This document shows, piece by piece, positions 1 through 64,000 of a stretch of 64,000 nt of DNA (position 1 is its first letter; each line of letters starts with the position of its first letter). This DNA is from Haplodiscus bocki (lineage: Eukaryota), in assembly GCA_965655095.1 (NCBI GenBank), contig OZ296649.1:150598001-150662000 (forward strand). Reading direction: 5' to 3'. The position numbers and the translations under genes were made by a program. The notes below the pieces were generated by a model. That model saw nothing but the letters and a program-made list of their open reading frames with translations, did not search any database and was not told where the DNA came from.

Positions 1-1
1 T

Positions 2-736
2 TCCAGCATGTTTTTCTTGTAATAATAATTTTAATCTGTCACATAATTCATCAGGATCAGATGATAGAAATATTGTTTTTGAAACACCAGAAGCAGAAAC
101 AATTAAACCTGGTGATTTTAATAATTTTATAAGAGTTTTATCTCGAGTAGGTTTTTTACCTGCTGCCTTCATATCAAAATGCATTTCTTTTGCAAAATCG
201 TACATTAATTTTTTATCCGCTAAACTAGCATGATCTACGTTATAGTCTTTATTAGTTATCAATTCCAAAAGATTTCCTGTTAATTCGAATTGTTTATTTG
301 TATCACGAAAAGTTATCATATTACCATATAAAGTAATTGGTATTTTATTCTTCATTAACAAATCGTTTACTCTATTTGAATTATGATCTTTTTCTAATCT
401 GAATTGACTTTTGTTTTCTGGATTGGTTATTTTAGATAAAGGAGACATTAAATATGTTGCTAATATACCTCTATCATTCATTATTTCTAGAAGTTTGTTG
501 TTTATATTCTCTATTGCTTTGTTGTTTGTTATAGAAGATTCTGTTATAGCTTTTGTTAAGTTTTCAGAAGTATTTTCAAGTGATTTAGTAACTGGTTCAA
601 ATACTTTTTTCATATTTTCGTGAAAGTTCTGTTCACCAAGCTTATCTTGCAATCTGACAACTTTTACTTGATCTTGTAACGAAGCTAACTCTTCTAATTT
701 ATTTAATTCTTCTCTATCCTTAATTGGAAACAACAT
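2..736 (-). CDS. Conserved Polinton uncharacterised coiled-coil protein (3' end runs off window; not in ORF track)
   Basis: Manual translation from ATG at 736: MLFPIKDREELNKLEEL...KLGEQNFHENMKKVFEPVTKSLE...SASGVSKTIFLSSDPDELCDRLKLLLQEKHAG. The DP(N/D)EL.DRL.LL....AG motif is typical of a conserved Polinton ORF. Confidence 0.8.
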   Translation of the reverse strand, partial: MLFPIKDREELNKLEELASLQDQVKVVRLQDKLGEQNFHENMKKVFEPVTKSLENTSENLTKAITESSITNNKAIENINNKLLEIMNDRGILATYLMSPLSKITNPENKSQFRLEKDHNSNRVNDLLMKNKIPITLYGNMITFRDTNKQFELTGNLLELITNKDYNVDHASLADKKLMYDFAKEMHFDMKAAGKKPTRDKTLIKLLKSPGLIVSASGVSKTIFLSSDPDELCDRLKLLLQEKHAG

Positions 737-789
737 TTAAAGCACTAAAATTTTTATAATTACACTTATTCAAATACTACTTTGTATGT

Positions 790-1563
790 TTAAAAAGCTT
801 CAGTTTCACAAATACATTCAATATATGTGGTTTTACTTTCATTGAAAATACGATATCTACCCTCATTTTTATTTTTAGTCGTATCAATACAAAGATAGTT
901 ATATTTTCCATCCCAAGCTTTATGACACATTTCTTTGAATTCATCATATTTCATATCATAAGCTCCGATGTCATAATACATACTTTGAACATCTCTCAGT
1001 GTTTGTTTAAATAGTATTAATATATCACTGTTATTTCTAATACTTTGTCTCGGTAAAGCAAAATAGCTCTGACTAATGTAATAAACGTCTATATCTTCAT
1101 GTCTACCTCTAGTAAAAAATTCATCTATTTGAGAACTATTTTTAGCTCCTAACATATTATCAAATATTACAACTGATCCTTTGTATTTGTTTATCGGTTT
1201 AATTTCATTACTTGTTTTATAATTTGGATATTGATTAGGAGATCTGGTTATTATATTGATTGGTCTTTTGTTACCTATTTTTTCAAGTACTTTGAGCATA
1301 TAAAACGTCTTGCCAACGCCGCTTGGTCCAATAACAACATGACGATGATTTTCAAATTTTGAAACAATGTCGTTTTCATTGTTAACGTTATCGATTTTTG
1401 GTTTTTCTGTTTTATTCACAGAGTCATCAAATTTTCTTTTCTTTTCTTTATTATTATATTTTTTTCTATTCATATTATAACAATTCTTGCATATATTTCT
1501 ATCTCTTTTACAATTATCTGCATCTATTTTTATACCGCAAACAGTACATTTTTTAACATCCAT
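790..1563 (-). CDS. A32/FtsK-HerA-type DNA packaging ATPase with N-terminal Cys-rich Zn-ribbon
   Basis: Walker A GPSGVGKT, Walker B VVIFDN, RGRH arginine motif, ISQSYF and IRNNS motifs. N-terminal CTVC...CKNC. Confidence 0.9.
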   Translation of the reverse strand: MDVKKCTVCGIKIDADNCKRDRNICKNCYNMNRKKYNNKEKKRKFDDSVNKTEKPKIDNVNNENDIVSKFENHRHVVIGPSGVGKTFYMLKVLEKIGNKRPINIITRSPNQYPNYKTSNEIKPINKYKGSVVIFDNMLGAKNSSQIDEFFTRGRHEDIDVYYISQSYFALPRQSIRNNSDILILFKQTLRDVQSMYYDIGAYDMKYDEFKEMCHKAWDGKYNYLCIDTTKNKNEGRYRIFNESKTTYIECICETEAF

Positions 1564-1578
1564 TTAATAAAACAGAAG

Positions 1579-1679
1579 AGTTACATAGAAGGTAACAGTT
1601 ACATAGAACGTAACAGTTACATGAAACGTAACAGTTACATAACAGTTAATGTCTAGTTACATGAAAACGTAACTGTTAC
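1579..1679. repeat. Array of ~18-bp GTTAC/GTAAC units upstream of the ATPase gene
   Basis: AGTTACATAGAAGGTAAC AGTTACATAGAACGTAAC AGTTACATGAAACGTAAC AGTTACATAAC ... AGTTACATGAAAACGTAACTGTTAC read directly. Confidence 0.85.
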
Positions 1680-1753
1680 TTTTTTAAGTTCTAGGTTGAA
1701 ATTTTAATTTATTATGACTAAAAAAAAATTTAATTTTATTTTTATATTCATGT

Positions 1754-2287
1754 TTATAAAAAAGATTCATTTTTATTTTCATCAACATATTTAGTAAAAA
1801 TATTACATAGACTTTCGTATTCAGTTTTATCGATTACGTTATCTTGTAAAGATTTTCTGTATAATTTATCAAAAGATTTAATAGTGTTTTGATCTCTTTC
1901 ATATTGTTTCTTATATTTATTGTATTTGTTTATAATTATTTTATGTAATACTTTACTACCTAATGACAGAGTACAAGCAATACCAGCTGATATTGGTAAG
2001 ATAATCAAACCAACACCTGTAACTGATAGAGTTATTGAAGTCGACGTTGCTCCGATGATAACAATACTGTCTACAGATTCTAATATTGTGTTTAGAGTTT
2101 TATATTTTTTATATCTCTTTTTTGATTTATCGTTTCTGTCTTTGAAATATGTAATCATTTCTTTAATGTTATTGATATGGTTATTAAAACTATTTACATC
2201 ATTTTTTTTCTTTTCTAATCGTTTTTCTAAATCAATATTTTCTAGTAATGGAGCACTAGGATACAATTTATCTGTTTTCTGATCCAT
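1754..2287 (-). CDS. Polinton membrane-active protein (GasderminX-like: coiled coil plus Gly/Ser-rich hydrophobic hairpin)
   Basis: 177 aa with N-terminal LYPSAPL, hydrophobic stretch IVIIGATSTSITLSVTGVGLIILPISAGIACTLSLG and C-terminal DNVIDKTEY. Confidence 0.6.
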   Translation of the reverse strand: MDQKTDKLYPSAPLLENIDLEKRLEKKKNDVNSFNNHINNIKEMITYFKDRNDKSKKRYKKYKTLNTILESVDSIVIIGATSTSITLSVTGVGLIILPISAGIACTLSLGSKVLHKIIINKYNKYKKQYERDQNTIKSFDKLYRKSLQDNVIDKTEYESLCNIFTKYVDENKNESFL

Positions 2288-2346
2288 TTATATATAGTAA
2301 AAATTACTCTTATACAAGTATGAACACATATACAAGTATGATACTC

Positions 2347-2760
2347 TTATATAAATTTGCCTAGATAAAGCCCTCGTCCCTCATGGTAAAATTTTATCAC
2401 TTCGGGTAATGTTGATAGAGCTGCTTTAGGATTTCTACTTGCAGCTGCGGTAGCAACGTTAGCACCGATCTCGAGAAATCGACTAGGATTCTTTAATGCA
2501 ATCTTTGCCAATTTTTGAGCAGCTTTAGAAGAGACCTTTCCCAAATTTTAAAAAAAATCACCGAGTCCTTCAGCTTGAATCACGTTATCAGAAACAATCA
2601 TTGTTTTTTTTCTATTACATATAACGCATTTTCCGACTAGTAATTTAACTTCTTTACCAGTTTTTGTATTATTTGTTTTATTACCAACTATGTCTTTTGT
2701 AGCTGATCTATGTCGTCCATCAACACAATATGAATCACTTTTAAATTTTTGAAAGCTCAT
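2347..2760 (-). pseudogene. Single virion core/membrane-lytic-type precursor gene interrupted by an in-frame TAA (joins ORFs 2548..2760 and 2347..2544)
   Basis: GAT TTT TTT TAA AAT TTG GGA keeps frame. Read-through gives ...VIQAEGLGDFF(K)NLGKVSSKAAQKLAK..., an amphipathic helix after a Gly. A homologous relic lies at ~19400-19580. Confidence 0.65.
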
Positions 2761-2848
2761 TTAAACACAAATAAATATAATTACTTGTATAAATACTCAT
2801 ATAAGTGTACATATAAATACTCATATACTTGTATGAAAACGTGTTTTT

Positions 2849-3942
2849 TCAAATTTTAATCATTTGTAGTGTAAAAGTCAATGTTTCTCCATTAAAATTA
2901 ACTTCTTTGTTATTATCATCTTCTAAATAAAAAGTTATAGTATTCAAAACAGATTTATTTACTTTTTTATAATGAATTGTCTCGGGCTCACAAAATACTT
3001 TGTATCCGGGTTTTTTATCTAATGCAAAACTATATAATATTGTTTGTCTAAAACCATCGACTATACTACCATCGATAATATCACACTTCAAGTGTATTTT
3101 ATTTGTACTACCTAAGTTTACAATTTTTGACTAATATACTTATTATAGTGTTTATAATCCCATCCTGGAGTAAAACCGAGAACAGTACTGAAAAATGATT
3201 TCTCATCAAATCTTATAGCTATAATCATAGCTCTCACTTTTAATTTAGTTTTCATGGTAATGTCATCATATTCAATATCAATTGCTTTGTGATGTCCACC
3301 ATATTCTGGAGGAATAATTTTTAAAAGAGCTTCGGAAATATCTTTAAAAGTGTAAATACCTGGTTCTAATTCATAAGTATTGAAATTTGAATTGTATTCA
3401 TCTAAAACCAGTTTAATATCATCTTCAACCAAATCAATTTGTGTTCTGAGAAAACTTTCGAAATCTTGAAATACAGAACTAGTATAAAATGCTAAAATAT
3501 TCATATATTGCTCATCATTCATTCTTTTTGTTACTTGTTCTTCATATTCTTTAATAATAAGCGGACCTATTATATCATCTTGTAAATCTTCTGCTGTAAT
3601 ATCTTCAATATCTAAATCTTTTTCAATTTCTTTTCTAACTTTTTCATAAGTAACACCACCGGCTTTTTCATCTGGAAATTTATAAAGTTCAAATTTGTTA
3701 TTTTCTTCTGTTATATTAAAAATAGAATTGTATACTTCTAAATCTGTTAAACCTATCATCCAATCTCCTTGAATTTGAATTGGTTGTGAGAAATGAAATG
3801 TTTCTCTTGATTTACTCATTTTGAATTCTAATGTTTCTTCTGCTTTTCTATGAGTTTGTTCGATTAACGTTTCACAATTTTTAGTTATTGATAGTAATAA
3901 ATCTTCTGTTTCATTTTTTGGTCTAATCATTTTCAAATTCAT
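2849..3942 (-). pseudogene. Minor capsid (penton) protein paralogue 1, 1-nt frameshift near 3123
   Basis: N-terminal FHFSQPI...WMIGLTDLEVYNSIFNIT.ENNKF and LEPGIY; C-terminal KIHLKCDIIDGSIVDG..ILYSF..PGYK..ITFYLED..VNFNGE. Adding one A to an A5 run joins the two ORFs. Confidence 0.8.
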
Positions 3943-4090
3943 TTAAAAATTATAAAAAATACTCTTATACAAGTATGTATATACAAGTATGTATAGTAAA
4001 TGTAAACACAAACATCATACTCTTATACAAGTATGTATAGTAATTATAAATACACGTATATGAGTACAATTTTGAGTACAATTTTGATTT

Positions 4091-5161
4091 TTAAATTTTA
4101 ATCAATTGACAAGTAAAACTTATCATTTCATTATTAAAATCAACGGGTTTGTGATCGTCATCTTCAAAATAAAATGTTATATGAGACAAAACAGATTTAT
4201 TTATCTTTTTAAAAAGTTTTACTCTTGGTTCTTTGTATATTTTATGTCCTGGAGGCGATGACAAAGCAAAACTGTACAAAATAGGTTCTCGTTTACCGTT
4301 TACGATACTACCTTGTATACAATCACATTTTAAATGAATTTTATCAATTCCAGTAATATTAATAGGTCTATCACTTTTATACGATCCCGCAATCAATTGA
4401 TAAAATCCATCTATATCATCTAGAGGATAAGAACGTGACTGAGTATAACCTAAAATTGTATAAAAGAAAGACTTTTCGGTGAAAAGTAAAGTTTGATTTT
4501 TTTTTAAATTTGATTTTAATCTAATATCATCTATTGTTACATTTACTTTTACGTTATCAGGTAACATATATTTCAAGGTATTTATTAAGTCAACTATTTC
4601 ATAAATACCTGGATTTAAAGAATAACCTGTTCTTTTTGTAGGAATATATTTCAAGTCTAATATATCCATAATTTCATCATAACTTAGTCTCATTCTGTAT
4701 GCTAAATCTTCAAGATTGTTGTATTTAGCATTTTTTAATTCTTCAATTATCTCATTTTTTTGAGTATCAAAGTCTGATAATTTATATTCTTTATCTGCTA
4801 TTTTTATTTTATTTCCTCTTTTTTTGACTTCTTCTACATGTCATTCAAGAGATTTAAGCTCTAATAATTTCTTTAGATCGTTAATAGTTTTTTCATCAGA
4901 TTCGTTTTGGTAATGACCCGGTATAATGATTGAAAAACTATTGTTTTCGTTGGTGATGTTAAAGACAGAATTTGTACACTCGAATGAACTCACAGCTAGT
5001 AACCATTTGTCTTCTTCAACTAAATTAATCGGAGGATTAAACGAAAATGTTCGTCTTTGTTTGTTCATTTTGAATTCGAGTGTTTCTTGAGGTTTTGTCC
5101 TTGTTTGTTCAATCAACGTATCTGTATGCTTTTTAATTAAAAGTAACAGTTCATTATTCAT
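4091..5161 (-). pseudogene. Minor capsid (penton) protein paralogue 2, in-frame TGA at 4841-4843
   Basis: ORFs 4841..5161 and 4091..4693 are in frame, with 49 open codons between them. Same motifs as paralogue 1: ETLEFKM, NSVFNITNENN, LNPGIY, KIHLKCDCIQGSIVNG, VDFNNE. Confidence 0.8.
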
Positions 5162-5331
5162 TTAAGGAGTTTGAATCCTGATGCTGAAATGTTATTAAGA
5201 AACTTTTTATTGTTTTGTGAAATTTTTTTGTTTTGTTTACGAGGAATTGTTTTTGTTTTATTTTCACTCATCTGTTCAGATTTTGGAATATATCGAACAC
5301 TATTTTCAATAACTATTTTTCTCAAAGTCAT
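5158..5331 (-). CDS. Small basic protein, 57 aa (possible virion core protein; not in ORF track)
   Basis: MTLRKIVIENSVRYIPKSEQMSENKTKTIPRKQNKKISQNNKKFLNNISASGFKLLK. TAAATG start; its TGA overlaps the next ATG. Confidence 0.65.
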   Translation of the reverse strand: MTLRKIVIENSVRYIPKSEQMSENKTKTIPRKQNKKISQNNKKFLNNISASGFKLLK

Positions 5332-5337
5332 TTATAT

Positions 5338-5750
5338 TCAAAGAAATCTTTGATAATACAAATTCAAAACGGCAGATGTAAAATCAATTCCTAAAACTTT
5401 TGATAAATAAATTATATATAAACAATAACTAGCGCAAAAACTATCATTTTTTGAATCTGATATTCAGAATATAAACAATATCCATTTCGTTTTATGATAA
5501 ATTTAGACAATTTCTTTGGACAAATGATACCATAACTATCAAAATAATTTTCATATATATAACAAACCCAATGAGTTCCTTTCGATGGATGTAAATTGAC
5601 AATACCTATATCAGATTTAAAAGGTCCGTCTCTTAGATAGATTCCAACATCATTCAAAGATAAGGATGAAAGGACTTGTTGTATTTTTATATTCGAAGTT
5701 GATTTATTTTTTAAATTATGTTTTTTAATAAAATCATTGAACTTCTTCAT
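5338..5750 (-). pseudogene. Adenain/Ulp1-like cysteine maturation protease, 1-nt frameshift at ~5450
   Basis: GIVNL..GTHWV and YFDSYG motifs. Adding one A to the A6 run restores QIQKNDSFCASYCLY with the catalytic Cys and a stop at 5338. Confidence 0.88.
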
Positions 5751-5843
5751 TTAAACACTCATATAGTTGTATGTATGAATATACATATAATTATATGTAT
5801 CAATACCCATATAAGTGTATATATCTGTGTGTTATAAAGGTAA

Positions 5844-6278
5844 TTATTTATTATCTTCTGATAAATCTCCTCTACGTCTTGTAGTAAATAAAAAATCTTC
5901 TAAAACTTTATCAGCATTTTGATAATTATCAAATAATCCTTTATCATATAATAATTGTATCGTCGTTTTTACAGCTCTCTGAATTAAAATATCTTCTACA
6001 GATTGTTTGTCGTATTGTAATTTAAATTCGTTGTAATCTTTTTCCAATTTTGATAAGTGACCATCTATTTTTAACAATTTTGAATCTAGGTAACCTTTGT
6101 TTATAACATCTGAATCATCAACAGGTTGAAAGTTTGTTGTTAGTTTTTCATCTTTTTTATAAGTATCATGTACTTCAAGCTTCAATTGACTAATATTCAA
6201 ATCTTGTAGTTTATCTCTTTTAGAAACAATACCATCAAATTCACTTTCCCAAAGTTTATTATAAGATATATAAGCCAT
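5844..6278 (-). CDS. Uncharacterised Polinton protein with fibre-type DxxNKxYLD motif
   Basis: 144 aa. PVDDSDVINKGYLD resembles the DAxNKxYVD fibre repeat. TAAATG start. Confidence 0.55.
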   Translation of the reverse strand: MAYISYNKLWESEFDGIVSKRDKLQDLNISQLKLEVHDTYKKDEKLTTNFQPVDDSDVINKGYLDSKLLKIDGHLSKLEKDYNEFKLQYDKQSVEDILIQRAVKTTIQLLYDKGLFDNYQNADKVLEDFLFTTRRRGDLSEDNK

Positions 6279-6295
6279 TTAAACAATAATAATTT

Positions 6296-6634
6296 TTATA
6301 TTTTTTTATTCATTTGTTTCTTCATCCTAAACATAATTAAATTAGCTCTTTTTTCATCATTGATATCTTTTAATAGTTTTGCTTTTGATTCTTCCAACCA
6401 TTTTTGATCATAATCACCTATTTGATTTTTCAAAGCATCGTTTTCAACACTTAATTCGAGTATATCATCACCTAAAACGTTGAAGGCTTTTTTGATTGCT
6501 GGCATCATGCTTGTCAACTGTTCTCCTTTTTTGGCTTGTGTTGATAGTGATTGTTGGTTAAAATCTTTTAAATCTTGTATAGTATCTTTTCTAACCGTTT
6601 GATCAGTAGAAATTAATTGCATAGCTAACTCCAT
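6296..6634 (-). CDS. Uncharacterised coiled-coil protein
   Basis: 112-aa ORF, heptad-like LELSVENDALKNQI, TAAATG start, co-oriented with neighbours. Confidence 0.6.
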   Translation of the reverse strand: MELAMQLISTDQTVRKDTIQDLKDFNQQSLSTQAKKGEQLTSMMPAIKKAFNVLGDDILELSVENDALKNQIGDYDQKWLEESKAKLLKDINDEKRANLIMFRMKKQMNKKI

Positions 6635-6650
6635 TTAAAAAACAAATATA

Positions 6651-7082
6651 TTAGTTATTTTTAATAATTTTGTCTAAATAATGTTCGTTAATTTCAATAT
6701 TCTCTTCTTGAACAGATCCAGCTTTTAAAACATTTTTTGATTTTGTTTTTTTATCATTTGAATTTGTCTTGAGGTCATTTGAGGTCAATTGAGGTCTTTT
6801 GAGGTCACCATTATTATCGATTTTGGTCTTTTTTTGTTGTTTTTTAACGTTTTTTGGATTAATTCTGTATGGTGAAAGCATATTTATATCGTTTCTATAT
6901 CTTTGTATAGTAGAAGGAGACATGTTTAATTGAGATGATATCTCTGATTGTGTCATTTTTGGATTTTGATATTTAATATTCATAAAATCGTTCATAAGTT
7001 TTAATTTATAATATTTAGTTAACATATTAGGGTCCATAGTAGAATTTTTATTTATCTCGTTTAAAGAAGGAGTATTAACCAT
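6651..7082 (-). CDS. Helix-turn-helix DNA-binding protein
   Basis: MTQSEISSQLNMSPSTIQRYRNDI fits an HTH pattern; basic C-terminal tail. Confidence 0.72.
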   Translation of the reverse strand: MVNTPSLNEINKNSTMDPNMLTKYYKLKLMNDFMNIKYQNPKMTQSEISSQLNMSPSTIQRYRNDINMLSPYRINPKNVKKQQKKTKIDNNGDLKRPQLTSNDLKTNSNDKKTKSKNVLKAGSVQEENIEINEHYLDKIIKNN

Positions 7083-7233
7083 TTATATATTCTAATAAGA
7101 ATATTATTATAATTATAAACACAAACACTATAAATAAAACTATAATTAAGTATATCCATAAGTTTTTATTTTGCTTCTTTGTGTTATCAACATAATTAAC
7201 ATATTCTTCAAGTAGATTCGTTTTAATGTTCAT
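7075..7233 (-). CDS. Small single-pass membrane protein, 52 aa (not in ORF track)
   Basis: MNIKTNLLEEYVNYVDNTKKQNKNLWIYLIIVLFIVFVFIIIIIFLLEYING. TAAATG start; stop overlaps the start of the HTH gene. Confidence 0.6.
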   Translation of the reverse strand: MNIKTNLLEEYVNYVDNTKKQNKNLWIYLIIVLFIVFVFIIIIIFLLEYING

Positions 7234-7237
7234 TTAA

Positions 7238-7813
7238 ATGAGACATTGTCAGAATTGTAACAGAAATTATTCAGATAATTATTTCAAAAAGCATTGTTAT
7301 ACTGATATCCATTTAAAAAAAGCGTTTGGAGTTAAATATATATACAAAAAAGAAAACATAGTTATTAATGAAATTGATAACACTCTTTCTGACATAATTG
7401 AAGAACATAAACGGAAATTTCATTCTTTTTATTTTGTATGTAAAATTAATGATAAAAAAATCATTGGTTATCCGAAACGTATCTTATTAAAAAACTATGA
7501 TAAAGATGAAATGATAAATATTGAATTTAATTTTCATTCAAACAGAGAAGATATGTCTTTTAATTACTATCTATCACAACCTAAATCTATGTTAGAAACC
7601 ATGTTGATTAAAAATCTTGATAAATATCCAGAAAAATTAAAAATACTTGAATACAGTAAAGCTCCTTATTATGAATATTTAATACTTAAATACTATGGGT
7701 TTGGCGTCATAACCCACGATAATCGTTTAGTCTTTTGTGTTAGAGATAACTGGTTAAATAATATTCCAAGAGAACCTGATAACGGTTTCAAAGAGATTTT
7801 AAGAAATAGATAA
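7238..7813 (+). CDS. Uncharacterised protein with N-terminal C2H2-type zinc finger
   Basis: CQNC-x12-H-x5-H (KKHCYTDIH), 191 aa, TAAATG start. Confidence 0.68.
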   Translation: MRHCQNCNRNYSDNYFKKHCYTDIHLKKAFGVKYIYKKENIVINEIDNTLSDIIEEHKRKFHSFYFVCKINDKKIIGYPKRILLKNYDKDEMINIEFNFHSNREDMSFNYYLSQPKSMLETMLIKNLDKYPEKLKILEYSKAPYYEYLILKYYGFGVITHDNRLVFCVRDNWLNNIPREPDNGFKEILRNR

Positions 7814-7827
7814 TTTTTTCTATATAA

Positions 7828-8382
7828 ATGACAGTTATATATATCACTGAAAATAATTGTGAATGTTATGCAGTAACTTTTGAAAATAAAGGATGGTTTA
7901 AAGTTCAAAACTTTGAAGATGGGTCTCTTGATGAAAATATTATTTACACAGTCAATCCAATGGAAACATTTTTGGGTAAAAGTCGATCTTGTAGTATGAC
8001 AGCTTTGTCAGGAGTTTTTGATAAGGCTTGTTTCGATGGAAATACTATTTTACTTAAAGTAGGTATAGAAAATGGAAAAAATAAATTTTTATATATTGGT
8101 GGTGATATGGTATGTTCTTTTTTGACTAGCGATAACATATATGAATATATCTCGAATATGGGACGTAATTTAAGTCCTTATAGTTTTGCTATAGGTAAAG
8201 AAAATTACTATTTGTTAACTCCGAATTTTAAATATATTAAAAAGGATAAGATTGATTACAATACTATATTGAAAGGAATATACGTTCCTGATTCTGATTT
8301 GAAGGAGTCTTTTGAAGAAATAGAATTGACTAAAATTCATTCGAATTATAATTACGACAACGAAAGCGATGATGACAACTAA
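7828..8382 (+). CDS. Uncharacterised protein resembling an NCLDV hypothetical family
   Basis: FDGNTILL...KFLYIGG..CSF...YISNMGRNLSPYSFAIGKENYYLL. Paralogous to the next ORF. Confidence 0.65.
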   Translation: MTVIYITENNCECYAVTFENKGWFKVQNFEDGSLDENIIYTVNPMETFLGKSRSCSMTALSGVFDKACFDGNTILLKVGIENGKNKFLYIGGDMVCSFLTSDNIYEYISNMGRNLSPYSFAIGKENYYLLTPNFKYIKKDKIDYNTILKGIYVPDSDLKESFEEIELTKIHSNYNYDNESDDDN

Positions 8383-8469
8383 ATTATCACCAATGATGTT
8401 ATAGTACTCTTACACAAATACGTGTAATTGTATTTTGTCGACACATACTGATAAAATTTTGTATAATAA

Positions 8470-8945
8470 ATGTATAAAATGAATAATCCAGAAACATATT
8501 TGTTATCTCATAACAGATTTATTGATTATCTCGTTTTAATATTTGTAGACAAAAGAAAAGCTCAAATTTTTACATTTCCTAGTAGAGTAGATGAGCATGA
8601 TGTAAATTAATTATTGATTTCCAATATAAACGTTTATTTAGACCAAATAAGCACTTGGAAAGATATCATATCGGAACACCTAAACATGAAAACTTTCTGT
8701 TCAAAATAGGTGATAAAAAATATCTTCATGTTGGAGAGTCTATATTTACTTTCACATCAGATAATAACATCGTAAAATATGGATTTCGATACGGTTCCAA
8801 CGACATTAAATTTCCTTTTGCATATGATCAAACAAATATTTATTATATGTTAGATAAAAAATATGAACCTATTAATCAATATAAAAAATCTACATTCAAA
8901 GACGAATATTCTTACCTATATAGAAATGATAAAACAAACGGTTAA
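8470..8945 (+). pseudogene. Paralogue of 7828..8382, 1-nt frameshift at ~8605
   Basis: TAAATG at 8470 opens MYKMNNPETYLL...; adding one A to GTAAATT joins it to ORF 8655..8945 (NFLFKIGDKKYLHVGESIFTF...KFPFAYDQTNIYYML). Confidence 0.65.
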
Positions 8946-9162
8946 AAAATGCAAAATTATAAACTTATTCATAAATAAAATTTCATTGCAATGATCGTAG
9001 AAATACTTTTCATTTTGCATGTCGCCAATGGTTTTCATATAATAATCCACAATATAATATGGTATAATTACACGAATTCGAATAAGAATAATAGTATTTT
9101 TATTCTTATATTTGTATGAATAAGTTTAATTTTTCTTTTTCTTTTACAAATACTATTTTGTT

Positions 9163-9432
9163 AATTTCTCGAAAATGCTAATAGATACGAGGTTGAAATT
9201 TTCAGGGTACACTTATAATTCAACGGGGTATCGAATGATGTATCACACTTTGATGTAGCTTAAAATTTTACAATCTTTTTATGTTTAAGCAAAGTGTTAA
9301 CGATCAATTTTCTCGAAGATGGTAATAGGTAAAAAGTTGAAATTTTCAGGGTTAACTAAACTTTTGATGGGCTTTCTTTTGATGTATCATTTGTATCTGT
9401 AGCTTAAAATTTTACAATCTCTTCATGTTTAA
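9163..9432. repeat. ~145-bp imperfect tandem duplication in the Polinton terminal region
   Basis: TTTCTCGAA.ATG.TAATAG...GTTGAAATTTTCAGGGT...TGATGTATCA...TGTAGCTTAAAATTTTACAATCT occurs twice (starting ~9163 and ~9308). Confidence 0.8.
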
Positions 9433-9929
9433 CGATGTCGTCATAGTGTGTATATTTCTCAGAAATCGTGTTTCTCGCTTTAGACAAAAAATAATCCACT
9501 GACGTGCAGGTGCAATTTTTCTAGTCTATGCTCGGAAAAAAATGTGTATCATTCGTCAGCCAGTAAATTTCTTCACAAAAAACGATAATTCTGTGAATTT
9601 TTCACAAATTTTTCACAAATTTTTTCACAAATTGTGAAGTTTCCAGTGAAATTCTCAGTATCGCTTCAACGTAAAAATACACGTGCAAGTTCATTTTACC
9701 ATTGCTTCACAATTTTTATGTTCACATAGACGTGGAATTACATATAGACGTTTTCATGTGTTGAAAAAAAAGGCGAAGCTCGAAAGAGCTGAGCAATAAT
9801 ATAAGCGAGAGGCGAGGTTTACCGAGCCGGTGAATGAGCGCAGCGAATGAGCGAGCGGGTATATTGTCGGATTTGCTACTGGGTGGATGGCGCAGCCAGA
9901 CAGTTAGTGGCAAATCCGCAATATACTAT

Positions 9930-10095
9930 ATTATTGACGTTCAATTGAATCTTTGCTTACTTCAATTGTTTTCGAACGTCTTGAAAAAATTGAATAAATT
10001 TGAACTAAATTAAATAGGTCTAATTTGCGGCGGTTAAAATGGCACGAGTTCAAAAAAGCTTGCGGTTGAAAGTGTGAACGGATGAAATGGCATAT
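9930..10095 (+). mobile_element. Fragment of MULE right end (same family as 14597-15779)
   Basis: TGACGTTCAATTGA...GTTTTCGAACGTCTTGAAAAAATTGAATAAATTTGAACT...GGTTGAAAGTGTGAACGG.TGAAATGGC matches ~15597-15757. Confidence 0.8.
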
Positions 10096-53680: not shown

Positions 53681-54227
53681 TTCATCATTTTTCTGCTCCA
53701 TTACTAAAAATTCATACACATCTCATTTTTCCAGCTGCGTAATGAAAAATTTATTCAAAACTTTTTTTAAACCCACTTATCAAAACACATCAAAAGATGT
53801 CAACCAAATCGGAGAAGAAATTCGTGAAAAATTTGGTCAGAAGTTTGGTTTGGATTGTGATCTGAGTTCTGGTTTCTGGTAATATAGTTCCAAAGGATTA
53901 GTTTATCAGAATCAAGGAATTTTCAAGCTACAACAAAATATAATCTACCGTTAGAAAAGTCTTGAATAGATCTTTTCAATGGTAACATATTCGGAAACTT
54001 TAACTGAAACATGGTGTAGGTCAATGCAATTTTTGTTGTTTTTCTTTTGATTTAGATAGAATTCTATCATTATATCTTGCTTCTTTCTTTCTCATTATTT
54101 CTTTCTCAAAAAATGTATTTTTTTTAAATTCATCATTGTTTTTAACGTTTCTTGTCTTTTCAAACTTTTTTTTACTTTTCTAGCACTTTTTCGGATTAAA
54201 AAATCCTGATTTTTCAATTCATCAGTA

Positions 54228-57200
54228 TTAATTCCAAGGTATACTTCCAATTTCATTCAGATAACATCAGTTCTCATCAAAAGCTCATAGTGTAGATTTA
54301 CGGACTTTTTGAAGATACATTTCATGATTAATTGATTTTATAATATAATTATCATTCTTTTTTATAATCACGACCAAATAAACAATTGTAATGTTCTTCG
54401 AAATAATATTTCTCGATTGAGGTTTAGAAATACCTTTCAATCTATTTTCAATATGACTGCCACATTTATATGAATATGCTTTACTTCGCAAACAAATAAA
54501 TTCATCTATAAAAGCGTTTTTAGGAGTCTCAATTTTCAATTTACCTTCAATTTTTTGTCTTTACTTCTGAATATTTCCCGGTCTTTGTTTAGATTACTAA
54601 ATTCAAATAAATCATTAAGATTTTGTAAGTCTTTGATAAAATTACTAGAAATTATATTTAATAAGAAAGCGTCGGTATCGATTTAATGACAGTTTTTTTT
54701 CTCCAAATTATGGTTGTAGATTATCATAATATTTTTCATACATCAACAATTTACGGAATTCTAGTGCGGCGAATCCTAAATAAAGTGGCTTATCCATAAG
54801 AACATCATTTTGCTTAAATATGTGTCATAATTTGTGTAAGATTTATGTGTTCCATTGAAGTTTAGTTTCGATTGTTGTTTGATGATTTCTTGATCATTAT
54901 CTTTTTTAATAAATTTCGTTTTCAATCTATTCGCAACATTTTTGATTGTTTTTCCATAAAATGCATTTTTGAGTAATCTATAGAAGTCCTTTTCGAAATC
55001 ATTTATTGCTTGATTTCTTTTCTGAGTTTTAAAATCAATATGTTTTTTTAGCCATTTATTTTGTTTAAACGAATTTATCTCATGAACTTCATCAACTATC
55101 ATCCCATGTCTCACATAAAATTTCAACATCTTAAAATGAAATAAATAATTTTTTTATCCGTCCAATCGCAAATCTAGAGCACTAGTTATATTTTCAGGGA
55201 AAAATGGAAAATTCTTTGTTCCTGTGTAATATCAGGATATTTTAAGTCAGCTTGTGCGAAGTAACCAATATCCGAATCATCAGGAGTGTTCAATATATCT
55301 TTTAAAGTAACATTTTAATCAAATTTAATATCATCATAAAGTAGATTTTCACTCATAGCGCCACCATATAAATTAGTAGCATCTATATATAATATCTTTT
55401 TATTTTCATCTGATTTCACATATCAATCTTCCAATACTGATGAAATTCTCCCTCGTATATTATTCTGTATTAATAAAACTTATTCTTTATCTTGAAGTGT
55501 TGTAAGTTTTTTCCTGTATATTTCTTTCCACATAACCATGTAAAACCAGTTAGACTTACACAATACAGAGGATTTATTCCAAATTCGTTAATTGATACTT
55601 CTATAAATTTCTCAAAAACACTTGGAAGTAAAGTAACATCAATTTTTGAGTATGATTTATTTAATTCTTCTCCATTTTTTATTAAGAAATAATTTAATAA
55701 TTTCTTTTCTATTTCTTCATCATTGGGATAATCGTTTTTTAGTTTACTGAAGAAGTCTTCTTTTCAAAAATTTTTAACAGGTTTTTGATAATCATCAATG
55801 CTATTGTAATATCCCTAAGGATATGCTTATTTCTTACCTCAATAACTATATATATATATATATATATCTGAAAATTCTGTTTTCAAATTTTTGAGATCAT
55901 TTTCAAATATATAATTATTTAAAGCTTCTATTTTATCAATTTCACCTGGAAAATCTCTTTTTAGATCTTCACTTGAATCCTTGTTATATCTATCCTCACT
56001 AATCAATGTTTCTATTTCCTCAGCAATTTTTCGTATATCATTCCTTCTAGAGCGATTGGTTTTAGCAATATTATCACCTCCGATATTTTATGTTTAATAT
56101 CAACAAGTGTTTTAACTAGTGAATCTAAACTGCTTGATAGAATTCGAGAACTATCAAAGAATCTTGTACAACCATATGTTACTGATATGTATTGTTCGTT
56201 TGTCTGAGGTATAATATCAATTTTTTTCATTCTTTTTATCAACTAATTTTTTGAAGAATAGATGACGATCACGATTACTGAAATTGTGAAATACAAATGG
56301 AATAAAATTACATGTTTCTGTGTAACATTAATGTTACATTTGTTATCTGCTGTTCCTCTATATTTACCTCTTAAGTGACAATGATCACTAACCTTAATAG
56401 AATTTATTTCTTTTCCACGAAATCGACAATTGTTATGATTTCTATAATGTTTTTTCACCTTTTGCAGTCATTATAATATTTTTTATTAGTGTTTTCAAAG
56501 TAAAAGTTCAATTTATTTTCTAATTTTATTACTTCGTCCAGAAACCAGTCTACATTATTATAACCTAACGGAGATTTATAACATCCACTTTGTGAAACAT
56601 CATTCAATTCAGATACTATACAATAACCATTACATACTGCTTTTTGTTTATAAATGTTAGTTGTTTTGTTTCCTTTTTTAGAATTATCAATTGCATTATC
56701 AGCTGCAAAATCTGCATATATCTCAAAATATAATAGATTCTTATGAAAGTGGTTTTTCCAATTTAGATGAGATTTACTTTATGTTTTAATAGCTGTTATT
56801 TCTTTTTGTTCACATCTTTGTCTACGTGTCATTAAAATATTTTAACTTGTATAGCAACTCAAACATCGTCTACATATATGTTTAGAATAATGTTTACTTA
56901 AAAATACGTTTCACTTTTTAACGAGAACGTAATGATTTTTGTATATCATCAAGTCAATAACTCTATCTGAAATTTTTCTACTATTTCCAATAGGGATTAA
57001 ATTATGTTCCCAATTATTTTGATTTCGATTGAAACTTAGTTCAAATATGCTTATTGATAAGTTATTTAGTTTCTCAATTTTGTGAACATCACTGCATTTA
57101 AATCCATTTGTTAAATCAAATCCATCAATGTTTAATTCAAAACAATTTTGTCTAAACTTCGATACTCTATTAGGATAATTATTTTTACAAGGATGTCGAC

Positions 57201-57975
57201 TTGCTAATATCGATCAAAGGAAAGAATAATTATCATCATTTTCAATATTTAATATAGCTGAAGGGCTTAACGGAATATTCATATAATTTACTGTTTAATT
57301 CAGTAGTTTTATGAAACTGTATTGGCATTGAATTAACTTTATCAAATCTCCATCCACTATCCTTTGATTCTTGATTCTGAATCTGTTTTTCTAGTTGAGT
57401 TCTAACACCAAAATCATCAATATCAGAGCCCGCTAAATTTCGATTACTATTCAAGTAATTATATAATTCAATTTCATCTAATACTTGATATTTTTCATCT
57501 TGCTTATCAAAGCTGGCTGAAAACACTGTTTGATCTTTAATTTCATATTGATTTTTAATCTTGCATATATATTAGTCAGATCTTTCATTATATTCTTAAC
57601 CTGTATTTTTTCAATTTCCAGATACTCTGGTGTGATGGTTAATTTAGAATTTATATGATCAATATGATGGCTTTCTAAATTAATATTAAATCCTGCTCTT
57701 AATACTCTGTTGGTAAGGTAATACTGATTATTCATTTTTTGGCTAGTTCTTTTTTGAGTTGTTTATCATCTATTTTAATTTTATCTCATACTATTTGTTT
57801 TGAAGGTTTAGGATTGTGAATTTTACTGGTTCGGTTTTCTTCATTTCATTATAAATGTGGGAGGGAATAATTTTTTCATTTTCTAAATGTTTTTTTTACT
57901 TCTTAAGTGTTTCACAAATGATGCTCTATGAACATCAATATTGCAAATATCACATCTGCGGCTGTTTTCCGTTTT
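54228..57975 (-). pseudogene. Protein-primed family B DNA polymerase (pPolB), fragmented
   Basis: N-terminal C2H2 finger CDICNIDVHRASFVKHLRSKKH, SGWRFDKV, endonuclease VII-like DHCHLRGKYRGTA..CN, YIDATNLYG, KNAFYGK, DTDAF, CLRSKAYSY. Confidence 0.92.
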
Positions 57976-59214
57976 GCCTTTCTGTTTATATGGGATAAAA
58001 GGCTTGAAATGGAATACTTGAGATCTCAATTTTCTCCTCCCTCATCTGATAAATTTTTAACCGTAGTATAATACAGGTCATAAAAATTTATATTCAATTG
58101 TATAACTTGTGGCTTTGTCTGTAGAAACTTCATTAATTTAAAATTAAAATGCTTCATGCAATATTAAAGCTATACCTTCAGCACCTTTAGTGAAAGGATC
58201 TTCTTCAAATTGAAAAGTATTACTCTCTCATATAATTCATTTGACCATAGTACTCACTTATATTTTTCTAAAATTTTAGTTTTGTTTCAACTTTTAAACT
58301 TTGTAATTTATTGATCATGTTTTCTCTTGTGTTATATTTTATATTCACCGTAGAAAAATATATATCTTTCATCTTTTTGTTTGCATAAGGTAGTCTCGTA
58401 GAAAAAATCCTATCTTGTCTAAGTGCTTTTTTATCTATCGGGCGTTTTTGTTTATTAATAATAAATTCGATATTGGACGAAAATGACCTTTATCAAAATC
58501 AATCCAATTACGTTGTTTGCGGATTGGACAATCATTATCTAATTTTGATTCTTCACTAGTCTTTTTCTTTTTTGTCGTTGGATAAGATCTGACTTCTACT
58601 TCATCATTTTCATTTTTAATAACTTTTTGATTGCGTCTTATTTCCGTTTCATGAATAACTTGATATTGAGTTCTCAAAGATTTCGGTGGTTTAAGTAGTC
58701 CGAATATTGTATCTTCAGTTGGGTGAATAATATATTGTTTTTCTTTTACTTCTACATAATATTTGCCATTCAGATATTTCGTTTGAAAGTTGATAAAACA
58801 CTTGCCATTAAATCGAAATATTTTTTATTGTCATAATGTTTATCCCAATGCCATCCATTTCGTTAATCTGATAATATCATGTCCATTTTTTAAATACTTT
58901 TTGCTGGTCTGGAAAAATGATTTTGTTGGAAATCTTCATCCATATTTTTATATTTTGCAATTAATTCGTTTTTGATAATTAATTTGTGATTTTTTAATCT
59001 TGTTAGACATACAGTTAATTTTTCTTTATCATCACCCTCATATATTTTATATACATCAATTCAAATACATAGAACGTTTTTCTCAGCATTTTTCAATCGA
59101 TTGTCAAAGTTTAATTCTTCACGTTGTGTTTTTGAAAGTTCTGGTTTTTGTTTTATTACATTATACCCACATGGAATACAAGTCCTTTCGTATTCATTTG
59201 GTAATGATGTGGTT

Positions 59215-59995
59215 TGTGTACAATGCATCTCTCAGGTTATCAATTGATTCTGTTTGAGGGAATTGTATGGTGTATGATTTCTGTTATTGTGTTTAATTCA
59301 TAGCTCCAATTGGTCGAATATCCTTTACTGAAAACTTTTTTAATGTCTGCGGTTTCAACTAAGTCTCCTAATTGAAACTGAGATTTTCAGTTCCTTCTTC
59401 TGTCCCGGAGATTGTCCAATGATACTGTTCAATTCTTCTTCAAAGAAGCTTGAACTGAGATCATTTTTATTGAGTGGTGTATGGTATTATTCTACTTCTT
59501 AGTGATAGATGGTAATTCACTTATCCATGAAGCGTTTCCTCTTTCAAATACTGGCTTTTTAAATAAATTCCCTATAGTTCTGTTAAATCGTTCTGCTATC
59601 GAATGTCATTCATCGGCATAACGAGAAAAATGTTGAAAATTTTTTAGTTTCAAGAGGTTTTTAAAAATATAAAATTCCTTTCGTCGATCAGATTCTATTT
59701 TGTTATGTTTTCGTTTTGAAACAGTCTTTTATTTGAAAACTCATCTGTTATCTCTTGACTATATTTTCTTTTCAAAGGGATGGTCCAAGCATTTTTAGAG
59801 AATTTATCAATCACTACCAGATTATATCTATAGCTTCTTTTGTTTGATGGTTTATAATCATTTAAATCTAACAAATCATTACACCATATTTCATCAATAT
59901 GAATAGATATTATTTGATTAGTTGGATAGTTTTTTTTCTACGTGGAGTACTGTGTATTTCCTCGATGAATGCTTGGACATTATCCTTCTTGCTCT
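59215..59995 (-). pseudogene. Retroviral-type (rve) integrase of Polinton B
   Basis: IWCNDLLDL...YRYNLVVIDKFSKNAWTIPLK, IESDR..EF, IAERFNRTI, FQLGDLV..FSKGY..NWS. Confidence 0.88.
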
Positions 59996-60019
59996 TTTAT
60001 TTCTAAAAAGTATTTTGCT

Positions 60020-60643
60020 TCAACTTCCTGTAGAAGATATAAACGGTGATTAATTTTGGCTCTTTTTGAATTATTTTCACCACAATACATAGGTCTTAAG
60101 TTAATCTAAGTGAAACATTTTTATTTCGTGTTCATCTAAATCATCGAATGATGTTATTGGTAAACAATGATCGATGCACCAAACAGAACCATGATCATCT
60201 ATACTCATATAACAATAAAGTTGATTTTCTATCCATTTTTTTTGAAAAACTTAGGAGAACAATCTATTGAATTGAAAGTTTTCGTTTTTTCAACATCTTG
60301 AGATTTGAATGCATAGCAATTTCTATTCCTCATAATAACAGTTAATATAAAAGTTAAATCTTTTTCTCTTTTTTTCCGTTGTTCGTTTTTTCCCTTTTAT
60401 CATTTTGATATTTTTTAATTTTATCATGATAATAATAATTCTTAAATAATAGTCTCTCTTCTTTAACCTTTTTTTAGAATCATATTCGCTTTGTCTCTGA
60501 ATTACACAGATTTTTTTTTGAGAATGTAAACTATCTTTAGTTGATGAATTTTTGTAAAAGTTAGATATTAAACAAATCAGATTACATTTAGAACATCGTT
60601 TAACTAAATCGTAATCATATAAATCTTTAATATAGCTACTCAT
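60020..60643 (-). pseudogene. HNH-type endonuclease with N-terminal Zn-ribbon (NCLDV-like)
   Basis: KRCSKC..ISNFYKN..KD.L N-terminus. Downstream frame WIENQL...GSVWCIDHCLPITSFD. Confidence 0.7.
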
Positions 60644-60669
60644 TTAACTATGAATGGTTATTTGAATTA

Positions 60670-61120
60670 AATGTACATTACTTTCGATCTCAGACCGCGA
60701 CCGTACATGTCCGTTAATGATAAGACCTTGCCTCCTGATGTGCTTTCTCAAATATTTGTTGTAGGTTGCCCAACCTGAGCATTTTTTCTTTTAGCAGCTA
60801 CAGCCATACCGATCAACGGAGCGGTTGCGTTAAGTGTTGGCTTAAGAAGCGAATCCTATGCTTTTTTTAGTGCGTTGGCAAATTTTAGCCATTTTATTTT
60901 TGAAACCATTGTCTTCAAGCATATATTGATTAGTGGAACATGTTAATTGTTTCCGACATTTACAATCACTTTTACCACACATATCGTGCAATTTCAGAAC
61001 GGTGCAATCGCTCTTCAAATCAGTCCTTGCTGAATTCGACATAGGGCTAGAAAGCCCGCGTTTACAATTTGCTCCTTTTTCAAATTTCTTTCCTTTAGTA
61101 AGGTTAGCCTGTTTATTCAT
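60670..61120 (-). pseudogene. Polinton virion precursor-type ORF (degraded)
   Basis: LKLHDMCGKSDCKCRKQLT...YMLEDNGFKNKMAKI followed by an Ala/Gly-rich helix and LSLTDMYGRGLR. Confidence 0.5.
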
Positions 61121-61287
61121 TTGCCTAGTAGAAATTTATGATTTATTACGTCCACAATTACTACAAGTACGTCTATTAACTCTACAAGTACGTCTATTTT
61201 ATTCGTTTTAGGGTTTACCTTTTCATATACATTCCGGTTTTTTGTTTCACTAAGATGACTACCACCAACACACCAAGTCTTTGTCAT
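61117..61287 (-). pseudogene. Homologue of the N-terminal half of ORF 2347-2760
   Basis: MTKTWCVGGSHLSETKN...NPKTNK versus SYCVDGRHRSATKD...NTKTGK. Confidence 0.55.
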
Positions 61288-61479
61288 ATAATTACTAAAA
61301 TTATGAATCTTCAGGAGGAGCACTTGGTTCATATTTTTTTTCCTTTTTAGTTTTGAATGAATTTATGTTTATTCTCATATTAATTATCACATCGTTTTGT
61401 TTAAGAAATTATTTAATTTGGTTATTTGTTCTAGCGGAATTTTCTATATTCCCAAAATATCACCAAAAATAACTTCACT

Positions 61480-61975
61480 TTGAACTCAGTGTTTTTCATT
61501 ATATCAGTTCTTTTATCCAAATAACTATTATAAATCTTTCTCATTTCATTAGCTTCTTTATCATCCATCTTTGTATCAACCAGCGATTGTTTCAATGTCT
61601 ATTCATAAAGTAAACTATTTATATTTATCCAATCTCGTAATTTAGTATGTCGTATTTTTAATTTTGAGATGTATTCATTAGTGATTAAAGTAGCTATCGA
61701 TGTAATCAGAGCTGTGCTGCTTGTTACAATAGCTACGCTTGGATTCAATGATGTTGTTTTTGCTGAACCAGATCTGATTAAAATTTCAGAAAAAATTAAA
61801 AATCTTTTCATTCAAATTTTTTTATTTCTTCCCATAATCATTATCAATCTTAAGTGATGTTAAAATATTCTCATAATCATGTTTATCTGTTTTATGTTGT
61901 AGTTCATTCAATTGATCATCTTCTGATTTTAATTTCAATAGTTCTGAGTCTCCATTCAAATTAGGATAAGCCGTT
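61480..61975 (-). pseudogene. GasderminX-like membrane protein remnant
   Basis: AYPNLNG..., hydrophobic SGSAKTTSLNPSVAIVTSSTALITSIATLI, then SLVDTKMDDKEA. Same architecture as 1754..2287. Confidence 0.5.
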
Positions 61976-62441: not shown

Positions 62442-62940
62442 TTAGACAGAATGTGTTATTTTAATGGTACTAAACCACATTTGTGCTAAAGCTGTATCGA
62501 TTCGATCATAAACTAGTTTAGTACCATAATTTGATTCTGTAAAATCTAAATTTAATAGAGTCCATTCTGTTGATGTAGTGCTGTGATAAGTATTTTTAGC
62601 AGTTATATATTTTGAATGCCATTGGCCATTCGGTAACAATAATTGAATTCAAAATCATTCGGTAACAATAATTGAATTCAAAATTGCCCCATTGATCTAA
62701 GATTATTACTTGGATCTGAGTATCTGTTATAATTAAAAGTGTATTTTAGTGATTTGAATGATATCTGTTCTTTCAAAACTAACGAGAACGTTTGATCCAA
62801 TATGATTACCACTTGATTCAATGTTTTTGAATCCCTAGGATAGATAGGATAGTTATAAACTTTGCAAATCGTTTTCAGTCATTGTATCATCTTTTAAATT
62901 CTGTTTCTTCATAAAAATTTTTTAAATTACGTATCGTCAT
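62442..62940 (-). pseudogene. Uncharacterised beta-rich Polinton ORF remnant (possible fibre head)
   Basis: TAAATG at 62940. VSFERTDIIQITKIHFNYNRYS...EWTLLNLDFTESNYGTKLVYDRIDTA. Confidence 0.45.
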
Positions 62941-62944
62941 TTAA

Positions 62945-64000
62945 ATAAATTCAACTCCCCTAATTTTATTTCCTTCAAAAACCATTTCAATTTCTCTGTT
63001 TTTTAGTATAACATAAAAATAAGCGTGTGTGGGATTTTCATCGTATCCTTCGAAAACCTAGTTTTCTTTGGTGTTACATAATCCGCTTGAATCCTTAAAT
63101 CAAATATTTGTATAGGATAATATGTCTTCATTTTATCATATGATATAATCGGAGATATTTGTTCACCAGGGTCTTCTTTATAGAATAAATTGGGATCTCT
63201 ATACGGGTTTAGATAATTATTTTCCGGGTAATTTATCTTCTTAGGATCTTTCGGATATTTAATACCATCGATTTCTGCAAAGTATTTTTCAACAGTAACA
63301 TTATCGAATATTGCGTTGTTGAATCTGTTGTTTGAAAGATTTCTAGCAGGATCTATGCGTTGTGTTTTCTGATGTGCTGCTATCAAACATGATGGAGCAA
63401 TGATATCTGATGCTGAGCTGATATCAAGTTGGATTTCTTTACCTGTTTTTACCGGTTTTCTATCAGTTGTCTATGACTCCAATGATAATGTAAAACTTTT
63501 CGTAATAGCTTCGTTGAAAATCCTGTGTGTTTCAGGGCTTGGAATTTTATTTGGTATATATGGAGATAGACTACTAATTGTAACATTAACAATCTCATCT
63601 CTTAGTGAAGTATAGAGAATATCTCATTTTCTGTTGCATGTATTTATTTCGAGTTCAAAACCAAGGCCCTTTGTTATTTTCTTGAATTATTTACAAACTC
63701 TAAAAATATGTTCTACAGGTAAATGTCCTCTTATATCTCCTCTGTTAGCTTCTGTATGGTTGTTAATAAGTATTTGTTTTAACGACGATTTGTTAATACT
63801 AGTCTCACTTTCATCGATAACATCAAAATAGAAGGATAAATCTCCATCTCTTTGTGTTAATAGTCTCATAATGGTTGATACTGGTCGAAATCTTTGTTCT
63901 GTTCTGTTTCAGTACCAGATGATGTTGAAATTCTAGCATCATGAATTGTGAAAGCAAAGGCGTTATTAACTAAGCTGATAACTTCGTTTGTCTTATCAGT
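62945..64000 (-). pseudogene. Double jelly-roll major capsid protein (partial, fragmented)
   Basis: GHLPVEHIF, LYIP..PSPET..IFNE, FDNVTVEKYFAEIDGIKYP, YPIQIFDLR are Polinton MCP-like motifs. Confidence 0.8.

Follow-up and report, generated by a model that had tools for sequence, protein, structure and literature searches.

TAAATG gene starts in a Polinton family of Haplodiscus bocki resemble poxvirus late promoters

Introduction

Animal Polintons could be self-sufficient viruses, ordinary transposons or virophages dependent on a large DNA virus, and few systems have been characterised so far (PMC11296320). Here we analysed a 64,000-nucleotide stretch of the genome of Haplodiscus bocki (assembly GCA_965655095.1, contig OZ296649.1, positions 150,598,001 to 150,662,000 of the forward strand), hereafter the window. 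It opens on the right half of a Polinton, element A, in which every identified gene starts with TAAATG; the family it belongs to is here called family 1. Which RNA polymerase would such starts serve? Our overall reading, held with moderate confidence and on sequence grounds, is that each gene carries a promoter of the poxvirus late type, for which a large DNA virus would provide the RNA polymerase in trans.

TAAATG at the gene starts of element A

The original prediction, made from the letters of the window, held that all genes of element A begin with TAAATG in the manner of a poxvirus late initiator. TAA does stand directly before the ATG at all 15 starts that it listed, with coordinates and strands correct in the sequence (Table 1), and likewise before two starts of the second Polinton in the window, element B (60643 and 62940, both on the minus strand). 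For the 15 starts this has a chance probability of about 1e-21 if TAA makes up 4.0% of triplets, and of 1e-15 at a generous 10%. By contrast, TAA precedes 4 of 298 other ATGs (1.3%; both strands, positions 1–8700). The comparison with internal ATGs that had been proposed could be carried through only in part: its in-frame version is empty, because an in-frame TAA inside an open reading frame (ORF) is a stop, which makes such ATGs useless as a control; the out-of-frame and antisense ATGs supply the 4 of 298. These ATGs were therefore joined by host genes and a second Polinton family as substitute controls. The lone long ORF without TAA (ATG 4693, 200 amino acids) is a downstream fragment of the broken gene that starts at 5161 and measures about 355 amino acids in other copies.

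Further upstream, A or T occupies both −14 and −13 at 15/15 starts of the window, with T at −13 in 12/15. The TAA of these starts closes no upstream gene and is preceded by 0–30 open codons, so stop–start coupling was ruled out; the gene upstream of the 5161 start, for example, terminates at a TGA overlapping the 5161 ATG. The divergent starts at 7233 (minus strand) and 7238 (plus strand) have their ATGs 4 bases apart and one TTTAAA in common. This spacing leaves no room for templated leaders, unless these run through each other's coding DNA.

Conservation of the motif across family 1

A search with the packaging ATPase across the 1.5-Gb genome returned 20,035 first-look candidates, 148 of which were scored. 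From these 148 best-scoring matches we drew a set of 33 copies, which are kin and not independent: the window copy and 32 others (12 over 20 kb, 20 over 10 kb). Queries made of the N-terminal 45 residues of 18 genes matched the 33 copies 494 times, or 462 times once 32 paralog cross-hits were removed. Among these 462 starts, 426 read TAA-ATG (the hyphen marks the start codon) and 20 read TAAA-ATG, 18 of them in a single gene. Of the remainder, 4 starts stand in another context (in 2 of them a frameshift has left TAAATG a few bases farther upstream) and 12 have lost their in-frame ATG through decay. A naive ORF-based measure gives TAA-ATG at 289/355 starts of the family.

The motif extends to the genes left of the window, with TAA-ATG at 12/12 integrase starts, 14/15 capsid starts and most polymerase types. 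Two exceptions stand out: in one type of polymerase gene, some ten bases separate TAAA(T) from the ATG, and an accessory gene begins TAAATA-ATG. Beyond the motif, the DNA upstream of the same gene in different copies is often unrelated while the motif is kept, and accessory genes found in just two or three copies likewise start with TAA-ATG. TAG or TGA never replaces TAA, and TAAA-ATG, in which the TAA is out of frame, occurs in 20 cases; tolerance of TAAA but not of TAG or TGA suggests, from the sequences, an initiator rather than a stop.

The copies (stretches L015–L030 and L187–L214) are also strongly mosaic, with upstream DNA, accessory genes and polymerase genes swapped at or near TAAATG. 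Compact promoters may travel along with gene cassettes in this family. Two other signals were set aside. Internal TAAATG appears avoided (observed/expected 0.78 sense, 0.43 antisense), and this was not counted since TAAAT shows no such deficit (1.04 and 0.93), the control word TAATG is also low (0.66) and the copies are non-independent; T5NT has no diagnostic value, as the two Polinton families are both poor in it (0.65 and 0.48).

A second element at −13 and −14

To describe what lies beyond the motif, we compared 107 upstream sequences, each less than 70% alike, over 27 positions. At −13 they carry T in 75, A in 31, G in 1 and C in 0 sequences; at −14, T in 73, A in 31, G in 2 and C in 1. 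T also occurs in 67 at −12, and positions −5 and −4 are A/T-rich as well. With T at 43% and G+C at 20% in the background, the bias at −13/−14 has p values of 2e-7 to 2e-9, and the result was stable with 76 sequences at a 60% threshold. In the divergent zinc-finger gene group, A rather than T stands at −13/−14, in 9/9 copies. A bacterial −10 box was ruled out, as A is never dominant at −13/−12.

In vaccinia and mpox late promoters, TAAAT and the G after it overlap the start codon, and the 10th nucleotide before TAAAT is a conserved T amid weaker ones; the intermediate promoters have TAAA and lack that conserved T (PMC11980589). Elsewhere the poxvirus late promoter is given as a T-containing core 5–7 bases from TAAAT(G/A) (PMC5294985). 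Counted back from TAAAT, the 10th base in family 1 falls on −13, which thus matches the T conserved in vaccinia. Judged by sequence, the putative promoters of family 1 thus combine both features of poxvirus late promoters, the TAAATG at the start codon and the T-rich position upstream.

Other upstream words were seen at individual genes. An extra inverted word, TTGAA ... TTCAATAAA, is shared, roughly between −45 and −15, by the genes for the polymerase and the divergent zinc-finger protein and by the last gene (L011, around 6640–6710, and upstream of L011:2413 on the minus strand); it possibly marks a second, earlier promoter class. Upstream of the ATPase gene (1575–1680), four to five tandem units of 17–18 bases surround a near-palindromic GTAAC(A/T)GTTAC in all copies viewed, a possible protein-binding array. 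A word around TACTTGTATAAGAGTA (2305–2350, 2780–2830 and 3960–4040) recurs at variable distance before several genes in many copies.

Host genes, a second Polinton family and large viruses

A host set was assembled from 76 histone, Ras-family, proteasome, Hsp70 and tubulin loci; removal of 17 without an ATG in the exon and of 1 duplicate left 58 rule-based starts, a few of which are possibly wrong. TAA-ATG occurs at 3 of these 58, compared with 15/15 in the window (Fisher p 6e-13). Host starts have a purine at −3 in 43 cases and T at −3 in 10, and A/T at both −14 and −13 in 22. The genome also carries a very long, near-identical 4.6-kb tandem array of histone genes (contig C4, 15.6–16.3 Mb, and C37).

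The second Polinton family in the same genome has TAA-ATG at 0/83 starts (16 gene groups, 6 copies), a count that omits an antisense 114-codon frame with TAA (4 copies) judged to be a non-gene. Together with the 3/58 host genes, this indicates that the TAAATG rule is no host Kozak preference. The poxvirus-late-like reading had been staked on such a comparison; it withstands it, and the T at −13 lends it extra support. The second family (L012, left of the window, and L175–L186) has a G+C content of 36–41%, about 10,000 first-look candidates and tightly packed genes, and no intact polymerase gene was seen in it across six 20-kb stretches. In about 10/16 of its gene groups an AG is found no more than 10 bases ahead of the ATG; such AGs may act in splicing, as acceptors in an adenovirus-like programme of nuclear expression.

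In 80 large-virus contigs with an RNA polymerase gene, TAA-ATG heads 97 of 1,054 ORFs, and 50/302 in the AT-rich subset. Set against 289/355 in family 1, the latter fraction indicates that A+T content alone is insufficient for the rule. AT-rich contigs of uncultured giant viruses (L257, L305, L263, L298, L265, L319, L306 and L289) show a loose TATA(A)(A)ATG, with TAA-ATG at 27–56% of starts, alternating TA and no clear T at −14.

Relatives and element B

A relative was found in nine contigs of other records (L223–L231). Its capsid is 40% identical and its gene order differs, and 21 of its 22 ORFs start with TAA-ATG, the single exception being an internal fragment. T is present at −13 and at −14 in 13/15 distinct contexts of this relative (about six genes). 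Two more distant contigs (L232 and L233), one decayed and the other short, have no TAA-ATG. No relatives were found in IMG/VR by capsid or integrase, and none in phage records. The ATPase homolog search returned at least 120 near-identical proteins (82–91%), with no distant ones among the matches listed.

Element B (53900–64000, continuing in L013) is a decayed third, AT-rich Polinton subfamily rather than a copy of family 1, to which it is about 25% identical in the capsid, about 38% in the ATPase, 54–58% in the integrase and 49–58% in the polymerase. TAAATG with T,T at −14/−13 is kept at its capsid start, which lies just past the window, and at another capsid start in L014.

Identity, borders and gene content of element A

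Element A is an integrated Polinton/Maverick, with a pPolB DNA polymerase, an rve integrase, terminal inverted repeats (TIRs), a target-site duplication, a capsid gene and an A32-like packaging ATPase all present. It is 19,023 bp long, of which ~9.1 kb lie outside the window on the left side, including the capsid, integrase and pPolB genes; the capsid and pPolB genes of this copy are broken. The flanks carry an identical 6-bp target-site duplication, the length typical of Polintons/Mavericks, and the TIRs measure about 1 kb. Matches above the cut-off comprise DNA_pol_B_2 for pPolB (E 3.7e-9), rve for the integrase (E 1.5e-11) and Pox_A32 for the ATPase at 790–1563 (E 5.6e-6). The double-jelly-roll capsid, taken from an intact copy of family 1, matches PF21738 (E 3.6e-11), and the helix-turn-helix protein gene that starts at 7082 matches HTH_24 (E 2.3e-5).

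The remaining genes are less well placed. The candidate at 5412–5750, which we presume from a His-Trp motif to be protease-like, has no Pfam or PDB match; it was the candidate for an adenovirus-type cysteine protease. A protein atlas search with the 184-residue accessory gene at 7828 gave no usable match. Another accessory gene of element A (stretch L011:2484–3230), which has a TAAATG start, shows a weak GNAT acetyltransferase match below the cut-off (E 7e-4). The host genome is that of an animal, as a Wnt gene attests (E 9.5e-48), and the contigs of four sequencing runs from one study cover the host flank evenly, as DNA would.

Table 1. Element borders and TAAATG starts in the window; fractions are TAA-ATG counts among matches in the copies of family 1
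Feature	Position	Strand	Bases at −14,−13	Evidence
Polinton A (family 1), right half	1..9935			TIRs, 6-bp target-site duplication; rve, DNA_pol_B_2 and capsid family matches
TIR of element A, about 1 kb	8983..9935			Inverted repeat; pile-up of contig loose ends at 9935, one run
Start, conserved 285-residue gene	734..750	−	T,T	32/34
Start, A32-like packaging ATPase (790–1563)	1561..1577	−	T,T	33/33; Pox_A32
Start, 177-residue protein with hydrophobic segment	2285..2301	−	T,T	33/33
Start, small gene (truncated in window copy)	2758..2774	−	T,T	31/34
Start, first of two ~360-residue paralogs (truncated in window copy)	3940..3956	−	T,T	32/33
Start, second paralog, within 3′ end of upstream gene	5159..5175	−	T,T	31/33, 32 paralog cross-hits removed
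Start, small basic protein gene	5329..5345	−	T,T	33/33
Start, protease-like candidate gene	5748..5764	−	A,T	30/33
Start, 144-residue gene	6276..6292	−	T,T	33/33
Start, 112-residue gene	6632..6648	−	T,A	32/33
Start, helix-turn-helix protein gene	7080..7096	−	A,T	31/32; HTH_24
Start, 52-residue membrane protein gene	7231..7247	−	A,A	Of 32: TAA-ATG 13, TAAA-ATG 18, other 1
Start, 191-residue accessory gene	7224..7240	+	T,A	Same layout in one other copy
Start, 184-residue accessory gene	7814..7830	+	T,T	16/17
Start, broken accessory gene, 46 codons	8456..8472	+	A,T	Window sequence
TAAATG start, element B	60641..60657	−	No A/T	Window sequence
TAAATG start, decayed gene of element B	62938..62954	−	T,T	Heads 17-codon remnant

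Transcription machinery

The original prediction also stated that no RNA polymerase is visible in the element, which might borrow one from the host or a helper virus. The lack of such a gene is borne out in 13 copies read over at least 20 kb: pPolB is their sole long ORF, and nothing beyond the DNA polymerase is long enough to encode an RNA polymerase. Searches of the genome recovered two Rpb2-type and two PolB genes of the host, together with three loci bearing Rpb1-type pieces, which, untranslated, are taken as three host enzymes. VLTF3 gave 0 matches in the genome, in a search whose positive control matched nowhere either. A consistent splice acceptor before the starts was sought and none found (AG in 14% per gene), which rules out a trans-splice acceptor, and no consistent poly(A) signal was seen, with AATAAA near 6/13 stops.

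Discussion

The motif is probably a transcription initiator, and we lean towards the polymerase of a helper virus as its reader. Of the two enzymes that the element might borrow, we find the host polymerase less likely. That the helper falls within or close to the poxviruses is a tentative proposal, with somewhat less than an even chance; some non-pox giant viruses carry looser similar initiators, so the helper lineage need not be limited to poxviruses.

Such a helper-read promoter would comprise a 17-base signal at each gene, with A/T (mostly T) at −14/−13 and TAAATG fused to the start codon, and a cytoplasmic large DNA virus would supply, in trans, the RNA polymerase that recognises it. Transcription would start within the AAA, and slippage would add 5′ As, yielding an mRNA without a templated leader, by analogy with poxvirus late promoters, where slippage gives a 5′ poly(A) leader, and with yeast virus-like elements, in which TAAAN initiators, slippage and 5′ poly(A) leaders are described (PMC6211774). 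A start within the AAA followed by slippage would place A at −3, so that the ribosome would not meet the unfavourable T that the DNA has there. In the manner of an endogenous virophage, the element would be expressed, copied and packaged during helper infection, and the packaged element would later re-integrate by means of its own integrase.

Several observations weigh against this reading. No helper virus sequence was found in the genome assembly, and no viral RNA polymerase: only host-type Rpb1, Rpb2 and PolB genes were recovered, in searches of which that for Rpb2 missed one expected host gene and is thus not fully sensitive. About 20,000 first-look candidates imply amplification in the germline on a massive scale, a tall order for an element that depends strictly on a helper. 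The 33 copies are kin, the motif itself is short and rich in A+T, and TAAAT is not depleted within genes (ratio 1.04 sense, 0.93 antisense). Non-pox giant viruses reach TAA-ATG at up to 5/9 and 6/12 of their starts.

The absence of a helper from the genome searches and the huge copy number, which fits autonomous germline activity, would also suit helper-free transcription in the nucleus, with host RNA polymerase II starting at TAAA to give a leaderless mRNA, perhaps through the element's own helix-turn-helix protein. This protein, the repeated upstream words and a summed contig depth thousands of times that of the flank (not a copy-number measure) point the same way. We nevertheless consider it unlikely, given that host genes (3/58) and the second family (0/83) do not use the motif, that the poly(A) signal is inconsistent and that the −13 T has a viral spacing with no known Pol II match. 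A TATA box at the spacing of the motif was ruled out: TATA boxes act 25–30 bases upstream of the transcription start (PMC5294985), and TATATAAA fused to the ATG, if it were one, would put the transcript start inside the gene. Copies that are broken in large number, the heavy decay of element B and, again, the missing helper might instead mark the motif as a relic of helper-dependent ancestors that today's copies no longer use as they spread. The motif and the A/T at −13/−14 are, however, fixed while neighbouring bases vary among copies with 83–92% protein identity, and the motif is also present on rare accessory genes; both observations argue for selection during the recent spread of the family and make a relic distinctly improbable.

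The polymerase might also come from an autonomous sibling element, in the style of the yeast linear plasmids, which provide polymerase and capping enzyme for others and have TAAAN initiators. Yeast virus-like elements replicate by protein priming, as Polintons do. Their use of TAAAN with slippage (PMC6211774) is a further parallel, but no additional Rpb1 or Rpb2 genes turned up in the searches of the assembly, and the yeast elements need an upstream conserved sequence at each gene, whereas the ATTGAA-like word here occurs mainly at three genes; we regard this origin as very unlikely. Hardly any weight falls on a signal for translation, be it a stop in frame by which genes on a polycistronic RNA are insulated or re-initiated, or a Kozak context particular to this lineage. 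The close packing of the genes and the TAA in frame with the ATG would fit it, but the TAA is not an upstream stop in 15/15 starts, TAG and TGA are absent while TAAA-ATG occurs out of frame, and the first genes of divergent pairs have the motif too. T stands at −3 in only 10/58 host starts, and the element at −13/−14 would be left unexplained.

The reading in terms of a helper-read, poxvirus-late-type promoter can be set beside known systems. Family 1 shares with vaccinia and mpox late promoters the TAAAT and G over the start codon and the T-rich peak 10–11 bases upstream, and with their intermediate promoters the TAAA variants. Unlike in these viruses, the putative promoter lies on essentially all genes, including polymerase and integrase, within a 19-kb integrated Polinton that appears to have no RNA polymerase of its own. 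The virophages of Cafeteria, mavirus and the EMALEs, are integrated, TIR-flanked elements with pPolB and an rve integrase. Family 1 resembles them in this organisation (see also PMC11296320) and in having an apparent large-virus late promoter before its genes; in Cafeteria this is a TCTA promoter common to virophages and CroV, the virophage promoters copying those of the helper (PMC8547959). It differs in its animal host, its Polinton-type capsid (PF21738), its motif and its thousands of copies. Membership of the virophage taxon Lavidaviridae was rejected, the sole Pfam match of the capsid being PF21738 and not a virophage-type major capsid protein. By analogy, family 1 probably behaves as an endogenous virophage would, although it does not belong to the virophage taxon.

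The plasmids pGKL1/2 of yeast have neither capsid nor integrase. They have their own RNA polymerase and capping enzyme, upstream sequences resembling poxvirus early promoters and an ATG that is not strictly fused to the initiator, in all of which they are unlike family 1; the TAAAN initiator with non-templated 5′ As is the likeness on their side (PMC6211774). Polinton-like viruses found with entomopoxviruses, in occlusion bodies, have been proposed as poxvirus hyperparasites; at least two lack an integrase and their capsids are highly diverged (PMC11296320). They, too, are Polinton-class elements in animals, and the terms promoter, motif, upstream and transcription are absent from the main text of that article. 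Further context is given in PMC11788076 and bioRxiv 10.64898/2026.10.13.758929. The original prediction knew of no such initiator in animal Polintons, and we likewise found no prior description in the literature searched, mostly titles and abstracts; subscription papers, Repbase and supplements lay outside that search.

A bolder picture, which we regard as doubtful, is that of thousands of endogenous poxvirus virophages, with every gene wired to the late machinery of a new pox-like virus that infects marine invertebrates. They would lie silent in uninfected animals, might act as an inherited antiviral defence and would share the genome with a second family that relies on host nuclear expression. 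At the level of sequence, a two-part putative promoter, exact in position and present on nearly every gene, but absent from the second Polinton family and nearly so from host genes, is evidence that an animal Polinton depends on a helper. The prediction is a new large cytoplasmic virus infecting this host, and the motif offers a cheap screen for all animal Polintons. If the reading is true, promoter signatures would sort animal Polintons into helper-dependent and autonomous ones, and would name the helper lineage.

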